A DNA stretch of 64,000 nucleotides, from assembly GCA_965248195.1 (NCBI GenBank), contig CBDFIQ010000002.1, forward strand, positions 128,001 through 192,000, in the 5' to 3' direction. How positions within the stretch are numbered: position 1 is the first letter of the stretch; each line of letters opens with the position of its first letter. The DNA comes from Longimicrobiales bacterium. Its GTDB lineage: Bacteria; Gemmatimonadota; Gemmatimonadetes; Longimicrobiales; Gaopeijiaceae. Under the pieces are notes generated by a model that saw only the letters and a program-made list of their open reading frames with translations, ran no database searches and was not told the origin of the DNA. Positions 6,930 through 19,389 of the stretch are shown one piece after another. The translations under genes and the position numbers were made by a program.

Positions 6930-7063
6930 CTACAGATCCTCCCGGCCTGAGCGATTCGGATTCGCGCTTGGAAATTAATCCTGAAACATCGTATCGGCTT
7001 CAAGGTCCCGCTATGTTTTCCGCGAAAGAAAGGGTTCTTCACAAGATTTCTCAGGACGAAGTC

Positions 7064-8284
7064 ATGTCGCACGCCTCGCTCCCCCATGACCTCGCTGTCC
7101 ACCGCGAAAGTGGTGGAACGATCATCATGCTTGTCATGGATGGGTTGGGCGGCTTGCCGCATCCGGACACGGGTTCCACCGAGCTGGAATCTGCCGCGAC
7201 CCCCCAACTCGACGCCCTCGCCGCACGGAGCTCCTTGGGCATGCTGGCTCCGGTAGGGCACGGAATCACGCCGGGAAGCGGACCGGGACACCTAGCGCTC
7301 TTCGGGTACGATCCCATTGAGTCGATGATCGGGAGGGGCGTACTCAGCGCGCTGGGGGTCGGGTTCGAGCTGCAGCCCGGGGACGTTGCGGCCCGCCTCA
7401 ACCTGGCCACCGTCGATCGTAAAGGAGTCGTGACGGACCGCCGGGCCGGACGTCCGTCGGACGAGGACGGGCGGCGCGTGATAGAGGGGGTCCGTGCCAG
7501 ACTTCGCGCTCCGGAGGGAGTCGAGGTGACGCTCATTCATGAGAAAGAGCACCGCGCCGTCCTCGTGCTTCGGGGCGAGGGTCTGGGGGCTGGTATCGCG
7601 GACACCGATCCGCAGCGCACCGGTCTCACACCCGTTCCCGCCACTGCCACCGGGGCGGACCCGGCGTCCGGGCGGACGGCGGCGATCGTGCAGGGCATCC
7701 TCGAACAGGTTCGGGAGATCCTCGCGGACGAGCCTCAGGCGAACTCGTTCCTCGCGCGCGGATTCGCGGCGTTTATGCCCTACCCCACATTTGAGACGCG
7801 GTATGGCCTCCGAGCGGTCGCGGTGGCGAGGTACCCCATGTATCGCGGCGTGGCGAGCTTGGTCGGCATGGCGGTCGAGGGGGTGCCCGACTCGAACGAA
7901 GGCAGCGTCGAGATGCTCGAGGGGCACTTTGGCGCCTACGACTTCTACTTCATCCACTTCAAGGACACGGACTCCCGGGGTCATGACGGTGATTTCGAAG
8001 GGAAGGTCGCGGCCATCGAAGAGGTGGATGCCTTGTTGCCTCGGATCACGGACCTCGGCGCCGACGTGCTCATCGTTACTGGCGATCACTCGACGCCGGC
8101 CCTTTACAGGGAGCATACCTGGCACCACGTGCCAACGCTCGTCGCTTCGAACTGGGCACGGCCCTCGGCGGAAGTGTTCGGGGAGTCGTCTTGCCGAGAA
8201 GGGGAGCTCGGGGTCGTGCCGGGCAAGGATCTGATGTCCTTGGCCCTCGCGCATGCCGTCCGACTCGACAAGTATGGGGCGTGA
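7064..8284 (+). CDS. apgM: 2,3-bisphosphoglycerate-independent phosphoglycerate mutase (ApgM type)
   Basis: MDGLGG, TPGSGPGHLALFGYDP, DSRGHDG, TGDHSTP. Confidence 0.9.
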   Translation: MSHASLPHDLAVHRESGGTIIMLVMDGLGGLPHPDTGSTELESAATPQLDALAARSSLGMLAPVGHGITPGSGPGHLALFGYDPIESMIGRGVLSALGVGFELQPGDVAARLNLATVDRKGVVTDRRAGRPSDEDGRRVIEGVRARLRAPEGVEVTLIHEKEHRAVLVLRGEGLGAGIADTDPQRTGLTPVPATATGADPASGRTAAIVQGILEQVREILADEPQANSFLARGFAAFMPYPTFETRYGLRAVAVARYPMYRGVASLVGMAVEGVPDSNEGSVEMLEGHFGAYDFYFIHFKDTDSRGHDGDFEGKVAAIEEVDALLPRITDLGADVLIVTGDHSTPALYREHTWHHVPTLVASNWARPSAEVFGESSCREGELGVVPGKDLMSLALAHAVRLDKYGA

Positions 8285-9089
8285 CGGACCGCCTCCCCAG
8301 GACAACTTCTCCATTTTCCGTGAGAGGTACGCGGACCCCCATTCCGTCGTTGCCCTAAGGATGGAGCAGGAGGTATTTGGTCATTCGTCTGGAGTGGATG
8401 GCTTTACCACCCTCGAGGAGGCGGATGCCCTGTCCACCGTTCTAGGCGTAGGGTCCGGGTCCACGGTCCTGGACCTCGGCGCCGGTCGTGGTTGGCTCGC
8501 GGGTTATGTCGCCGAAGCGAGCGGCTGTCACGTGGTTTCGTCTGACATTCCCACCGACGCCCTCGTTGAGTCCAACCGGCGATTTTCTGCCCAGGGCTTG
8601 GTCGGTCGAGCAACCACCGTGGCTGCGGATGCGAGGGCTTTACCCTTTCGCCGGCAAGGGATCGATGCCGCAATACACTCGGATGTGTTCTGCTGAATTC
8701 CCGAAAAACTCTCCGTGCTGAGAGAATGCCACAGGGTGCTGAAGCCCGAGGGCGTCCTCGCCGGATACCTTATCCACACCCCGCCTGGACTCACGCCCGC
8801 ACAGGAGCAGGAGGCGGTAGATTTGGGCCCCTCCGCGGTGGGTGCCGAGCGTTCTCCGGCGGACATGGCTACCGAGGCCGGCTTCGGAGAGGTCGGTGTG
8901 GAGGACGTGACGGACACGTTCCTCGCGACCCTGGACCGGGTTATCTCGGCCCGTTTTTCCTACGAAACCCGGCTCCGCGAGCTGGAGGGGGATCAGGTTT
9001 TCGAGGACGAACAGGGCGAGAGCGAGGGAAGGCGCCGGGGAGTTCTCTCGGGGCTGCTGAAACGGAGCTTCATCGTTGCCCGGAAATGA
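8274..9089 (+). CDS. Class I SAM-dependent methyltransferase with in-frame TGA (probable selenocysteine)
   Basis: VLDLGAGRG motif I; ORFs 8253-8696 and 8715-9089 share a frame, joined as DAAIHSDVFC-TGA-IPEKLSVLRECHRVLKPEG. Confidence 0.8.
8694..8727 (+). promoter_or_regulatory. Putative bacterial SECIS element
   Basis: Stem CTCTC(8709-13)/GAGAG(8720-24), loop CGTGCT with G at position 2, loop starts after 17 nt following the TGA. Confidence 0.55.
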
Positions 9090-16227: not shown

Positions 16228-19200
16228 ATGAATCGAAAAAATCGGACTTGGCAGCCCATAGATCCGGCAGCTGGGGGTCTACCGGAGGGACTTGAGTCTG
16301 CCCTCGGTGATGGGGAGTCCGTGTCCGCCTGCGTCGTCGTTCTGGTCGACTCCGAAATCGACTCTGAGTGGGGTGCGCTGGCGAGTTTGGCGATTGCCAA
16401 GAGATGGGCGGAGTCGGGGCACCGCGTCATTCTCGCGGATGCGTGCCTGGACCGTCCGGTGCTCCACGAGGTGGCGGGCGTCGAGAATGGCGAGGGTGTC
16501 TCCGACGTGATGCTCCTTGGGGCATCACTTGAGCGAATCGCGGAACCTCTCGGAGAGAGGCTGTTCCTCGTCCCCGCTGGAACACCGGTCGATCAAGTCG
16601 CCGACGTTCTGACACACATCGAATGGGACATCGTGATTCGGGGGTGTAAGCGGGCTGGGGCGACGCTCGTTTTTCACGTGTCGACCGGGACGCCCGGTGC
16701 ACAGTCTCTGACGGAGCGAGCCGAAGGGGTTCTGGTGCTCGCCCCGTCATCGCAGGACCTCGACACCATCGTTGGGAGCGAATCGGGTCCGCTGATCGCG
16801 GTACTGGGTCCGGGGAACAGAGGAGACCCGTCCGCTGCCGGCTTACCAGGTCCAGCGCTTGCCGACCCCGCGGGGGAGGGGTTCGGCTCCGACGAAACGC
16901 CTGAACCGGCCTTTGCGGAGCCCGGCGGCGGAGATTTCTCACTGGATGAGGAGGACGCTCTCGCCGTCGAGGGATTACCTGAGTTACCGGAGGAGCCACC
17001 GGCCTTCTCCGTGGATGATCCGCCGGAGTTGCTCTCTAGCGAAGGTGAGGATGGAGAGACGTCCGATGCTTTCAGCATACCGAGCCTGGAGGGCTCACAG
17101 TACGATGCGGGGGACTCGCGGGACGCGGCGCTGGAAGCCGACGTCCCTGAGGCGGAGGCTGTGGTCTCGGAAGCTGAGGAGTCCACAGAGGCATCTGGCA
17201 CGCCTGAGGCCGGCGACGTCGGTGTGGGGACCGCGGATCTGGATTCAGGATCGGATCTGGAAGTCGAGACGTCGGTCGAGGGCGATACCCCGCTGGTGGA
17301 CCCGGTCTCTGTCTCCGATTCACTCGCGGAGGTGGGGGCTGAGGAATCTGCAATAGAGGACGCTCTCGCCGTCGAGGGATTACCTGGGTCACCGGAGGAG
17401 CCAGAGGCCTTCTCCGTGGATGATCCGCCGGAGTTGCTCTCTAGCGAGGGTGAGGATGGAGAGACGTCCGATGCTTTCAGCATACCGAGCCTGGAGGGCT
17501 CACAGTACGATGCGGGGGACTCGCGGGACGCGGCGCTGGAAGCCGATGTCCCTGAGGCGGAGGCTGTGGTCTCGGAAGCTGAGGAGTCCACAGAGGCATC
17601 TGGTACGACTGAGGGCGGCGACGTCGGTGTGGGGACCGCGGATCTGGATTCAGGATCGGATCTGGAAGTCGAGACGTCGGTCGAGGGCGATACCCCGCTG
17701 GTGGACCCGGTCCCTGTCTCCGATTCACTCGCGGAGGTGGGGGCTGAGGAATCTGCAATAGAGGACGCTCTCGCCGTCGAGGGATTACCTGGGTCACCGG
17801 AGGAGCCACCGGCCTTCTCCGTCGATGATCCGCCGGAGTTGCCCTCTAGCGAAGGTGAGGATGGAGAGACGTCCGATGCTTTCAGCGTACCGAGCCTGGA
17901 GGGCTCACAGTACGATGCGGGGGACTCGCGGGACGCGGCGCTGGAAGCCGATGTCCCTGAGGCGGAGGCTGTGGTCTCGGAAGCTGAGGAGTCCACAGAG
18001 GCATCGGGCACGACTGAGGGCGGCGACGTCGGTGTGGGGACCGCGGATCTGGATTCAGGATCGGATCTGGAAGTCGAGACGTCGGTCGAGGGCGATACCC
18101 CGCTGGTGGAGCCGCTCCCTGTCTCCGATTCACTCGTGGAGGTGGGGGCTGAGGGATCTGCAATAGAGGACGCTCTCGCCGTCGAGGGATTACCTGAGTC
18201 ACCGGAGGAGCCACCGGCCTTCTCCGTCGATGATCCGCCGGAGTTGCCCTCTAGCGAAGGTGAGGATGGAGAGACGTCCGATGCTTTCAGCGTACCGAGC
18301 CTGGAGGGCTCACAGAAGCGGATCTGGAGATCGAGGGATCTGCCGGAGTGGTCCTCTCGCGAAGGCGAGGATGGAGAGACGTCCGATGCCTTCAGCGTGC
18401 CGAGCCTGGAGGGCTCACAATACGACGCGGGGGACTCGCGGGACGTGGCGCTGAAAGCCGACGCCCCTGAGGCGGGGGCTGTCGTCTCGGAAGCCAAAGA
18501 GTCCACAGAGGCATCTGGCACGGCTGAGGGTGGCGACCTCGGTGTGGGGACCGAGGATCTGGATTCAAGAGCGGATCTGCAGGTCGAGACCTCGGTCGAG
18601 GGCGAGACCGCGCTGGTGGAGCCGCTCCCCGTCTCCGATTCACCCGCGGAGGTGGGGGCTGAGGATTCTCCAACAGAGGAGCCGCAGGGAGAGTCCACCG
18701 AGGAGGATGCGGAGGCCGGGCGGGGGTACGAGGGTCCAGCCCGGGTGGAGAAGTTGCGGAAGACGGAGCGGAAGACGGAGCTGAGGACGAAACGGGAGAC
18801 GAAACTGAAGACGGAGCGAAAGACGGGGCAGAAGACGGGGCAGAAGACGGAGTGGCATGTCCTTCTCGTAGACGACGACGACGACTACTCCCTGGTCATA
18901 GAGCGATCTCTTAGGTCGGCCGCTGGCGTCCCAGTGGAGATCCGGAGGGCCCGCAAAGGCGGCGAGGCGCTCACCGTGCTAGGGGATTTCGTGCCCGATC
19001 TACTCTTGCTGGATCTGAAGATGCCGGGGATGGGGGGTCACGAGGTTCTCGAGAGGATCAAGGGGGACGACAAGCTTCGTTCGGTTCCCGTAGCGGTTCT
19101 TTCGTCTTCCGACCGCGACGAAGATGTTGCCAAGAGCTACGGATTCGGAGGTAATCACTTCATCACGAAGCCAAGCAATCCCCTAGTGCTCGAGGCGAAG

Positions 19201-19389
19201 CTGGGAGCGTTGCTTCGGAACCTCGCGGAGTTGGGGGGGATTCGTCGGGGGTCGACGGGAGTATCGACGACGGCGGTCAGCGCTGTGGACCCACACTCCA
19301 TGACCATACTAAAGGTGCTCCGCTGGGTGGTGGTCGTGGGTGCGTTGATCGCGCTTTACATCTTCGGCAAGGTTTCGGGGGCGTTTTAG
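16228..19389 (+). CDS. Multidomain protein: degenerate MinD/CapB-like domain, acidic repeats, receiver domain, C-terminal TM helix
   Basis: GHRVILADACLDRPVLH; 135-aa D/E-rich repeats; LLVDDD..LLDLKMP..LSSS..FITKP REC; hydrophobic C-terminus. Confidence 0.8.
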   Translation: MNRKNRTWQPIDPAAGGLPEGLESALGDGESVSACVVVLVDSEIDSEWGALASLAIAKRWAESGHRVILADACLDRPVLHEVAGVENGEGVSDVMLLGASLERIAEPLGERLFLVPAGTPVDQVADVLTHIEWDIVIRGCKRAGATLVFHVSTGTPGAQSLTERAEGVLVLAPSSQDLDTIVGSESGPLIAVLGPGNRGDPSAAGLPGPALADPAGEGFGSDETPEPAFAEPGGGDFSLDEEDALAVEGLPELPEEPPAFSVDDPPELLSSEGEDGETSDAFSIPSLEGSQYDAGDSRDAALEADVPEAEAVVSEAEESTEASGTPEAGDVGVGTADLDSGSDLEVETSVEGDTPLVDPVSVSDSLAEVGAEESAIEDALAVEGLPGSPEEPEAFSVDDPPELLSSEGEDGETSDAFSIPSLEGSQYDAGDSRDAALEADVPEAEAVVSEAEESTEASGTTEGGDVGVGTADLDSGSDLEVETSVEGDTPLVDPVPVSDSLAEVGAEESAIEDALAVEGLPGSPEEPPAFSVDDPPELPSSEGEDGETSDAFSVPSLEGSQYDAGDSRDAALEADVPEAEAVVSEAEESTEASGTTEGGDVGVGTADLDSGSDLEVETSVEGDTPLVEPLPVSDSLVEVGAEGSAIEDALAVEGLPESPEEPPAFSVDDPPELPSSEGEDGETSDAFSVPSLEGSQKRIWRSRDLPEWSSREGEDGETSDAFSVPSLEGSQYDAGDSRDVALKADAPEAGAVVSEAKESTEASGTAEGGDLGVGTEDLDSRADLQVETSVEGETALVEPLPVSDSPAEVGAEDSPTEEPQGESTEEDAEAGRGYEGPARVEKLRKTERKTELRTKRETKLKTERKTGQKTGQKTEWHVLLVDDDDDYSLVIERSLRSAAGVPVEIRRARKGGEALTVLGDFVPDLLLLDLKMPGMGGHEVLERIKGDDKLRSVPVAVLSSSDRDEDVAKSYGFGGNHFITKPSNPLVLEAKLGALLRNLAELGGIRRGSTGVSTTAVSAVDPHSMTILKVLRWVVVVGALIALYIFGKVSGAF
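16951..18665 (+). repeat. 405-bp in-frame tandem repeat (about 4 copies)
   Basis: gaggacgctctcgccgtcgaggg at 16951, 17356, 17761, 18166; last copy interrupted and diverged. Confidence 0.95.
18757..18852 (+). repeat. 12-bp degenerate tandem repeat (KTER/KTGQ)
   Basis: cggaagacggag and cagaagacgggg units. Confidence 0.75.

Follow-up and report, generated by a model that had tools for sequence, protein, structure and literature searches.

A predicted Cys-Sec selenoprotein family among class I methyltransferases, with the pair at the position of the catalytic histidine of its relatives

The described proteins closest to the one reported here fall into three groups: by fold, the phosphoethanolamine N-methyltransferases (PMT), the sarcosine/dimethylglycine N-methyltransferases, and the RebM-type natural-product methyltransferases; by the presence of selenocysteine (Sec, U) in a methyltransferase, ArsM and MduS; and by its dipeptide, the Cys-Sec (CU) selenoproteins SaoL, SaoB, SaoC, HgcA, MbdU, and KCU-star. 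The last group, as far as the accessible parts of the sources describe it, shares with our protein a vicinal Cys-Sec pair that alternates with Cys-Cys (CC) and database entries truncated at the Cys, but the folds are unrelated and none of the proteins listed is a class I S-adenosylmethionine (SAM) methyltransferase. Table 1 of a 2026 inventory of 119 selenoprotein families (PMC13188914) lists, in the portion available, ArsM (UxxG), MduS (CxxU), UXPK-star, and two ArsM fusions, and no class I methyltransferase with a CU motif. Here we describe a predicted enzyme of that kind, encoded in a 64,000-nucleotide (nt) stretch of a Longimicrobiales bacterium genome (GenBank assembly GCA_965248195.1, contig CBDFIQ010000002.1, positions 128,001 to 192,000, forward strand), which we call the window and whose numbering is used throughout.

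An earlier note, made from the letters of the window alone, had proposed a single 271-residue methyltransferase that crosses one in-frame TGA directly after a Cys codon and that gene callers would split, and the whole of this proposal is borne out. The list of open reading frames (ORFs) divides the gene into two ORFs of the same frame (8253-8696 and 8715-9089), and database proteins likewise end at Cys140 or start after residue 141. Pfam Methyltransf_11 matches residues 66-163, spanning the TGA codon, at 61.4 bits (cut-off, 21.2), and the ATG at 8274 agrees with the start of 14 database proteins of 140 amino acids, all terminating at Cys140. The Pfam domain, motifs I to III, and a Rossmann-like fold place the product, by sequence and predicted structure, among the class I SAM methyltransferases. 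The two apparent fragments are one intact, conserved methyltransferase gene. Nor is the TGA a base-call or assembly error, a concern raised in the same note, because two further studies, apart from the best holder, supply contigs that contain it: a contig of run X4 spans 8227-8845 with three other letters (listed at its depth: 8347, 8444, and 8505), and one of run X7 spans 8568-8735 with none. RNA-labelled runs yielded nothing beyond partial contigs from relatives.

Conservation of the TGA was followed through genomes, metagenomes, and protein databases. A survey of 401 genomes of the order returned 34 matches at E ≤ 1e-22, with one TGA in each of the 34 rows. Ortholog DNA was examined for 31 of these, together with congener G009 and three genomes of other families, and all 35 have Cys followed by TGA at residue 141, the frame being open on both sides and identity ranging from 36 to 74% where measured. 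A sample of 401 genomes from the phylum gave 10 strong matches, all of them TGA forms, and 18 weaker matches without a stop, mostly with His at 141 and many with Cys-His. For metagenome DNA, the search pattern left the last base of codon 141 free and returned at least 120 loci, which among those listed carry TGA (42), TGC (59), TGT (19), or TGG (0); because the pattern allowed only TGN, this tests TGA against TGG and TGY, not against TAA or TAG. The best 150 of the representatives at 50% identity comprise 84 with Cys-Cys, 30 ending exactly at Cys140, 22 starting after residue 141, 2 with Cys-Trp, 5 with other dipeptides, and 7 in which the site is not covered, 3 of them stopping at residue 139. 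Conservation extends to both sides of a TGA that aligns with Cys in homologues, which the earlier note had named as support.

Wider searches add to this picture. An alignment search gave 242 protein matches, the best 120 of which were 117 Cys-Cys forms and 3 not parsed; a single-protein search for homologous proteins returned only 12 weak matches, and the corresponding search of genome contigs only one unrelated locus. No match to the CU family was found among plasmids or viral contigs, ESM Atlas matches bear only generic methyltransferase names, and orthologous fragments are annotated as Gemmatimonadota/Longimicrobiales. The ratio of nonsynonymous to synonymous change relative to congener G009 is 0.275 on each half of the gene and, in eight other pairs, 0.12 to 0.40 upstream and 0.13 to 0.67 downstream of the TGA. 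By the criteria of Haft & Gwadz, the family shows the marks of a bacterial selenoprotein: at least 10 examples (35 genomic orthologs and 42 metagenome loci with TGA among those listed), a stop that is always TGA (35/35 genomic), and homology running through the site together with Cys homologues. Separately, three family proteins end at residue 139 (P0119, P0136, and P0135, the last in an 18-member cluster with one Chloroflexota name), as expected if position 140 were also TGA (Sec-Cys or Sec-Sec); a search for such forms in 301 genomes of the family gave two pattern matches, both unrelated. One ortholog from another family (L064, G711:C141) has, besides the Sec TGA, an additional TAG in frame some ten codons short of its end.

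The source genome (G000) is equipped to insert Sec: selA, selB, and selD score over curated cut-offs and a tRNA-Sec(UCA) is present, which answers a further question of the earlier note, and its selD carries an in-frame TGA of its own. TGA is otherwise an ordinary stop there, ending 1005 of the 1951 open frames of at least 400 codons, and only tRNA-Trp(CCA) and tRNA-Sec(UCA) are found. The presence of selA in 32 of the 34 TGA-bearing genomes (an order-wide tally that takes in the unpublished genome G117) is weakly informative, because the background in the family is 207 of 256; G117 enters into none of the other results.

The hairpin that follows the TGA is as the earlier note had described it. 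CTCTC (8709-8713) pairs with GAGAG (8720-8724) around the loop CGTGCT (8714-8719), in which G at position 2 is followed by U. The model of the bacterial selenocysteine insertion sequence (SECIS), bSECIS, asks for a loop of 3 to 9 nt, a stem of 4 to 16 bp, G in loop position 1 or 2, a spacing of 16 to 37 nt, and a folding energy of at most -7.5 kcal/mol (PMC13188914). The loop of 6 nt, stem of 5 bp, G as second loop base, and spacing of 17 nt found here fall within that geometry; in all, three of the four model constraints are matched, energy being the exception for the hairpin alone. In isolation, the hairpin of this copy folds at -5.5 kcal/mol (z, -0.74), no better than chance in a single sequence, and it becomes significant only through the comparison of TGA genes with Cys genes and of orthologs with one another. 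Genomic orthologs served to define the hairpin, which 34 of the 35 contain; the one without it, G009, carries a premature TAA as well. It was then counted in 118 in-frame metagenome loci. Among the loci listed, the five pairs and GUG loop are present in 40 of 42 TGA genes and in 0 of 76 Cys genes, a contrast for which relatedness of the sequences inflates any p-value, and Cys genes coding for the same KLSVL or KLAVL peptide do so without the hairpin.

Codon choice and pairing point the same way. Across 74 TGA genes, the codons at the hairpin are locked as CTC (72), TCC (69), GTG (74), and AGA (61), although AGA makes up 6% of Arg codons in the rest of these genes. In 60 sequences, 93.6% of cells pair, versus 33 to 73% for slid partners, and one stem pair has changed on both sides in three sequences, probably through one or two events. 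A loose genome-wide SECIS scan with 1122 candidates was uninformative; a pattern of the family-specific geometry, itself derived from the CU family, fits 18 of 128,177 TGA triplets. The hairpins of the SelD and ArsM-like genes of the source genome differ from that of the CU gene. On these sequence comparisons, the TGA at 8694-8696 is predicted, with near certainty, to be decoded as Sec.

Phylogeny places the Sec and Cys forms in one family. A quick maximum-likelihood tree of 123 proteins, built from near-full-length loci only and after masking of the site and of the residues that the SECIS encodes, sets the CU and CC proteins on one side of a 100% branch and eight His-type relatives on the other. 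One Cys clade accounts for 61 rows of this tree, and a third Cys, at position 37, is also conserved in the main Cys clade (91%). At least one Cys gene is nested inside Sec branches, and therefore the codon would have switched more than once. Sister methyltransferases from genomes of other families within the same class (L074 and L076-L084) carry Cys-His at 140-141 and, judged by their sequences, are an apparent intermediate between the His-type and the Cys-Cys/Cys-Sec forms.

An AlphaFold model with U replaced by C (pLDDT, the predicted local distance difference test, 90.4; pTM, the predicted template modeling score, 0.86) puts residues 138-141 in a short helix directly after strand 130-135. 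The nearest solved structure is AtPMT2 (Z 27.9; root mean square deviation 2.9; 246 residues aligned), followed by Plasmodium PMT, sarcosine/dimethylglycine methyltransferase, TleD, and RebM, with ArsM at rank 26 (Z 18.0). Profile alignments set Cys140-Sec141 on Leu359-His360 of AtPMT2 and on His140-His141 of RebM, which we take to be catalytic, and Asp137 on AtPMT2 Asp356 and RebM Glu137. Plasmodium PMT uses a catalytic dyad of Tyr19 and His132, located between SAM and substrate (PMC6705855, in the part available), and PDB titles name its mutants Y19F, D128A, and H132A. Its Asp-to-His spacing equals that from Asp137 to Sec141, a match in distance, and Tyr19 of the CU enzyme is possibly the counterpart of the dyad Tyr19. 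By sequence and predicted structure, the CU enzyme is thus of the PMT/RebM-type fold, with Cys-Sec at the position of its relatives' catalytic His.

The likeness to the PMT/RebM group (PDB 5wp5, 4iv0, 2o57, 3bus, 6uv6, 8zc8, and 5gm1, including AtmM, MitM, and TleD) covers residues 8-271 (Z 25 to 28) and includes the length, the SAM motifs, the acidic residue four before the catalytic position, and the overall fold with its cap (Z 27.9, 26.5, and 25.4). The differences are an identity of only 17 to 24%, a family model that the CU protein does not pass (NF041675, 36.6 of 550), and, after strand 4, Cys-Sec or Cys-Cys where the PMT enzymes have His and RebM has His-His; the available part of the PMC13188914 inventory has no Sec member of this group. 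ArsM, Sec forms included, shares the class I SAM fold, a thiol or selenol near the active site, and the interchange of Sec and Cys, and among the recurring neighbours of the CU family an ArsM-like gene is the most frequent. However, the CU protein passes none of the ArsM models (NF008823, the fusions NF041536 and NF041537, and NF047649), with scores of 35.5 of 263, 40.8 of 510, 31.3 of 575, and 37.5 of 460, and its motif is CU, not UxxG. The analogy of the earlier note with the catalytic Cys of ArsM proved to be out of register: the post-motif-II Cys of ArsM aligns to Asp137, not to Cys140 or Sec141, and the comparison is therefore corrected to a PMT/RebM-type enzyme. In a pairwise alignment with the ArsM-like gene of the same genome, no other Cys aligns to Cys, the N-terminal part being unaligned, and the CU protein lacks the three or more Cys at CmArsM positions 44, 72, 174, and 224 by which ArsM is recognized (PMC5552862). 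MduS likewise combines a methyltransferase domain with Sec, but the CU protein scores 25.7 bits against a cut-off of 380 for its 338-position model (NF045649), and MduS is listed with CxxU and two Sec in the available part of the PMC13188914 table, whereas the CU protein has a single CU. Thus the comparison with ArsM and MduS models proposed in the earlier note gave no match over cut-off.

Other catalogues are silent on the family as well. No NCBIfam 20.0 model scores over its cut-off for the CU protein or for seven Cys-Cys homologues, the word methyltransferase is absent from the main text, as available, of deep-Sep, BSepDB, and Haft & Gwadz, and a literature search found nothing on a CU methyltransferase family, though some recent selenoprotein surveys could mention it. 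We regard the sequences as evidence of a real, widespread family of predicted selenoproteins that is absent from the catalogues checked and may have been mentioned earlier elsewhere. It adds to the known selenoproteins a group recorded in GenBank and metagenomes as fragments of 136 to 143 amino acids (e.g., MDE0729818.1, MCH7563934.1, and HIA74311.1). It would also put Sec in a methyltransferase clade and position outside the PMC13188914 inventory, as far as available, where characterised relatives carry His.

Genomic context gives some clues to the substrate. In the source genome, the CU gene lies between apgM and two M16 peptidases; apgM is not a recurring neighbour outside the genus and is context only. 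Flanks were fetched for 78 in-frame metagenome loci, many of them short, and 9 of these have an ArsM-like methyltransferase no more than 3 kb away, with a 68-residue piece in one more. Six of the nine have TGA where Cys versions carry Cys, and the states of CU gene and neighbour pair as CU with U (5), CC with C (3), and CC with U (1). With scores of 214 to 225, these neighbours stay below the ArsM cut-off of 263, and Gly takes the place of their post-motif-II Cys. Five metagenome loci have ArsR-rhodanese fusions and two have glyoxalase-like genes; DsrE genes, Cys/Met lyases, and an MBL-rhodanese fusion are each found in single loci. An obligate partnership with the ArsM-like gene was considered and rejected for family f1 (8/33 versus 48/256 genomes).

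The source genome has ArsM-like genes of its own, away from the CU gene. L212 (G000:C2:2500671-2501444, +) has an in-frame TGA where relatives have Cys, followed by a strong hairpin, has Gly at the post-motif-II Cys position, and falls below all ArsM cut-offs (215 of 263); its TGA forms at 60% identity or more occur in 25 of 401 genomes of the order. The gene after L212 is similar to a DAO-family gene located downstream of the CU methyltransferase in genus g11. A second, L213 (G000:C1:994276-995060, +), contains no TGA in frame, and Ser replaces its Cys ahead of motif I.

We somewhat favour, from the sequence evidence, a predicted activity in which the CU pair binds a soft substrate of the sulfur, selenium, or arsenic type next to SAM for methylation. 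Cys140 and Sec141, as adjacent soft nucleophiles, would hold an atom of sulfur, selenium, or a trivalent metalloid on the side of SAM that faces the substrate, binding it as a mixed thio/seleno adduct; the bound atom would then take the methyl group from SAM, and a thiol reductant would recycle the pair. A soft substrate is suggested because both positions stay thiol or selenol across the family, and because the additional conserved Cys at position 37 in the main Cys clade and the ArsM-like and rhodanese neighbours fit. A preprint (bioRxiv 10.1101/2022.07.06.499078) has also connected CC and CU motifs to the binding of heavy metals. Reactive sulfur or selenium species (persulfide, hydrosulfide/selenide, and small thiols) rank slightly above As(III)/Sb(III) as candidates. 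The substrate that the earlier note had proposed for a CU-motif methyltransferase, a metal(loid), thiol, or selenol, is a reasonable possibility. A tentative elaboration, which we would not expect to hold in full, is that a PMT/RebM scaffold whose His has become Cys-Sec traps persulfide, selenide, or a trivalent metalloid, possibly via methyl-Sec, and acts in sequence with a one-Cys/Sec ArsM-like partner.

That the TGA is instead a true stop in a split or decayed gene, or is read as Trp, is highly improbable. This explanation draws on broken copies in congeners, on the 2 Cys-Trp proteins among the best 150 database representatives (JGI records whose cluster also has fragments starting after the site), and on the departures of this copy from the family at Asn42, Pro75, Gly120, and Phe130. 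It is opposed by the recurrence of the same TGA codon in all 35 orthologs down to 36% identity and in the 42 metagenome loci among those listed, by purifying selection on both halves, by the absence of TGG from the 120 metagenome loci listed, and by a genome in which TGA ends 1005 of 1951 long frames and of tRNA-Trp and tRNA-Sec only the CCA and UCA forms, respectively, occur. Several observations nevertheless weigh against a functional Sec gene and, further on, against a soft substrate. The Cys-Trp records are one; others are the 2 of 34 TGA-bearing genomes without selA and selB (82% and 78% complete), a hairpin whose -5.5 kcal/mol misses the bSECIS limit of -7.5 kcal/mol, with -8.0 obtained when 50 nt from the TGA are folded, and the decay in three congeners, which makes the CU gene dispensable. 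A lower SECIS stem was also tried and is unsupported, 228 of 500 shuffles being as high.

As for the substrate, the neighbours at 23 Gemmatimonadota loci differ by genus and include no common metal or sulfur genes, the ArsM-like neighbour is missing in 68 of the 78 metagenome loci (many of them short), the informative loci come from few related groups, and in family f1 the CU gene brings no enrichment of the ArsM-like gene (8/33 versus 48/256 genomes). The close solved relatives, moreover, are all N-, O-, or C-methyltransferases of organic substrates. A selenoprotein methylating an ordinary organic amine or hydroxyl, with Sec/Cys as a polar or basic substitute for His or with CU as a redox on/off switch, is the most serious rival, though an unlikely one. 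The top structural matches (AtPMT2, Plasmodium PMT, sarcosine/dimethylglycine methyltransferase, TleD, and RebM), the retention of Tyr19 and Asp137, the sister clade with Cys-His at the site, and the lack of a conserved metal or sulfur context in Gemmatimonadota all speak for it, but a selenolate (pKa 5.2; PMC13188914) is a poor general base compared with His, both residues remain sulfur or selenium throughout the family, and ArsM-like and rhodanese neighbours recur. Less probable again is a covalent methyl-Sec intermediate, in which Sec141 would attack SAM and pass the methyl group to a metal centre, a corrinoid, or a protein while Cys140 resolves or orients it. Sec is a strong nucleophile and Sec141 occupies the position of the PMT His between SAM and substrate, but no corrinoid or acceptor gene recurs nearby, and Se-methyl-Sec is normally stable, so turnover would require extra chemistry.

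Whichever atom is methylated, the natural series of Cys-His, Cys-Cys, and Cys-Sec allows a direct test of the contribution of Sec to group transfer by a non-redox enzyme, and the Cys-Cys form in the cultured species Pelagibius marinus (P0273) offers an accessible first assay. If the substrate is sulfur, selenium, or arsenic, the predicted capture of a soft atom by the CU pair would bear on the microbial volatilisation of those elements. If the tentative trap created by replacing His with Cys-Sec is true, it would represent an unrecognised route to volatile methylated sulfur, selenium, or arsenic compounds in marine Gemmatimonadota and also in Actinomycetota and Chloroflexota.

Table. Coordinates of the CU methyltransferase gene, its predicted functional elements, and the upstream gene in the window
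Feature	Position	Strand	Remarks
Methyltransferase gene, 271 aa, class I SAM-dependent	8274..9089	+	Single in-frame TGA read through; start ATG 8274, final stop TGA 9087-9089
Tyr19, N-terminal	8328..8330	+	Conserved in 97% of Sec forms and 90% of Cys forms
SAM-binding motif I, residues 65-73, then family-specific Trp74	8466..8492	+	G69, G71, G73, and W74 invariant
His135-x-Asp137, end of strand 130-135	8676..8684	+	Invariant in Sec forms; Asp137 ~ AtPMT2 Asp356, RebM Glu137
Cys140 codon TGC, first of the CU/CC dipeptide	8691..8693	+	35/35 genomic orthologs; invariant in alignments
In-frame TGA, predicted Sec141	8694..8696	+	Aligns with RebM His141 and AtPMT2 His360
Predicted bacterial SECIS: 5-bp stem, 6-nt loop, GU at loop positions 2-3	8709..8724	+	TGA-to-loop 17 nt
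Motif III, residues 154-160, 3' of the TGA	8733..8753	+	-
apgM-type phosphoglycerate mutase, upstream	6968..8284	+	NF003160, 525.8 bits, cut-off 468; 11-nt overlap with methyltransferase start

Around the gene, no sigma-70-like promoter was found between 6700 and 12300. Decayed copies stand at the same site in three congeners: G009 has a premature TAA and a mismatch in the SECIS stem, and in G001 and G007 internal deletions remove the catalytic domain of the CU gene. In other strains, contig joints link apgM to an M16 gene without the CU gene between them. Contigs of two runs have, at window position 8654, a 24-nt in-frame duplication just 5' of the HxD-x-x-CU motif. Further along the window, an ORF of 1053 amino acids (16228-19389, +) encodes several acidic repeats, nearly identical to one another and each about 135 residues long, ahead of a response-regulator-like domain.

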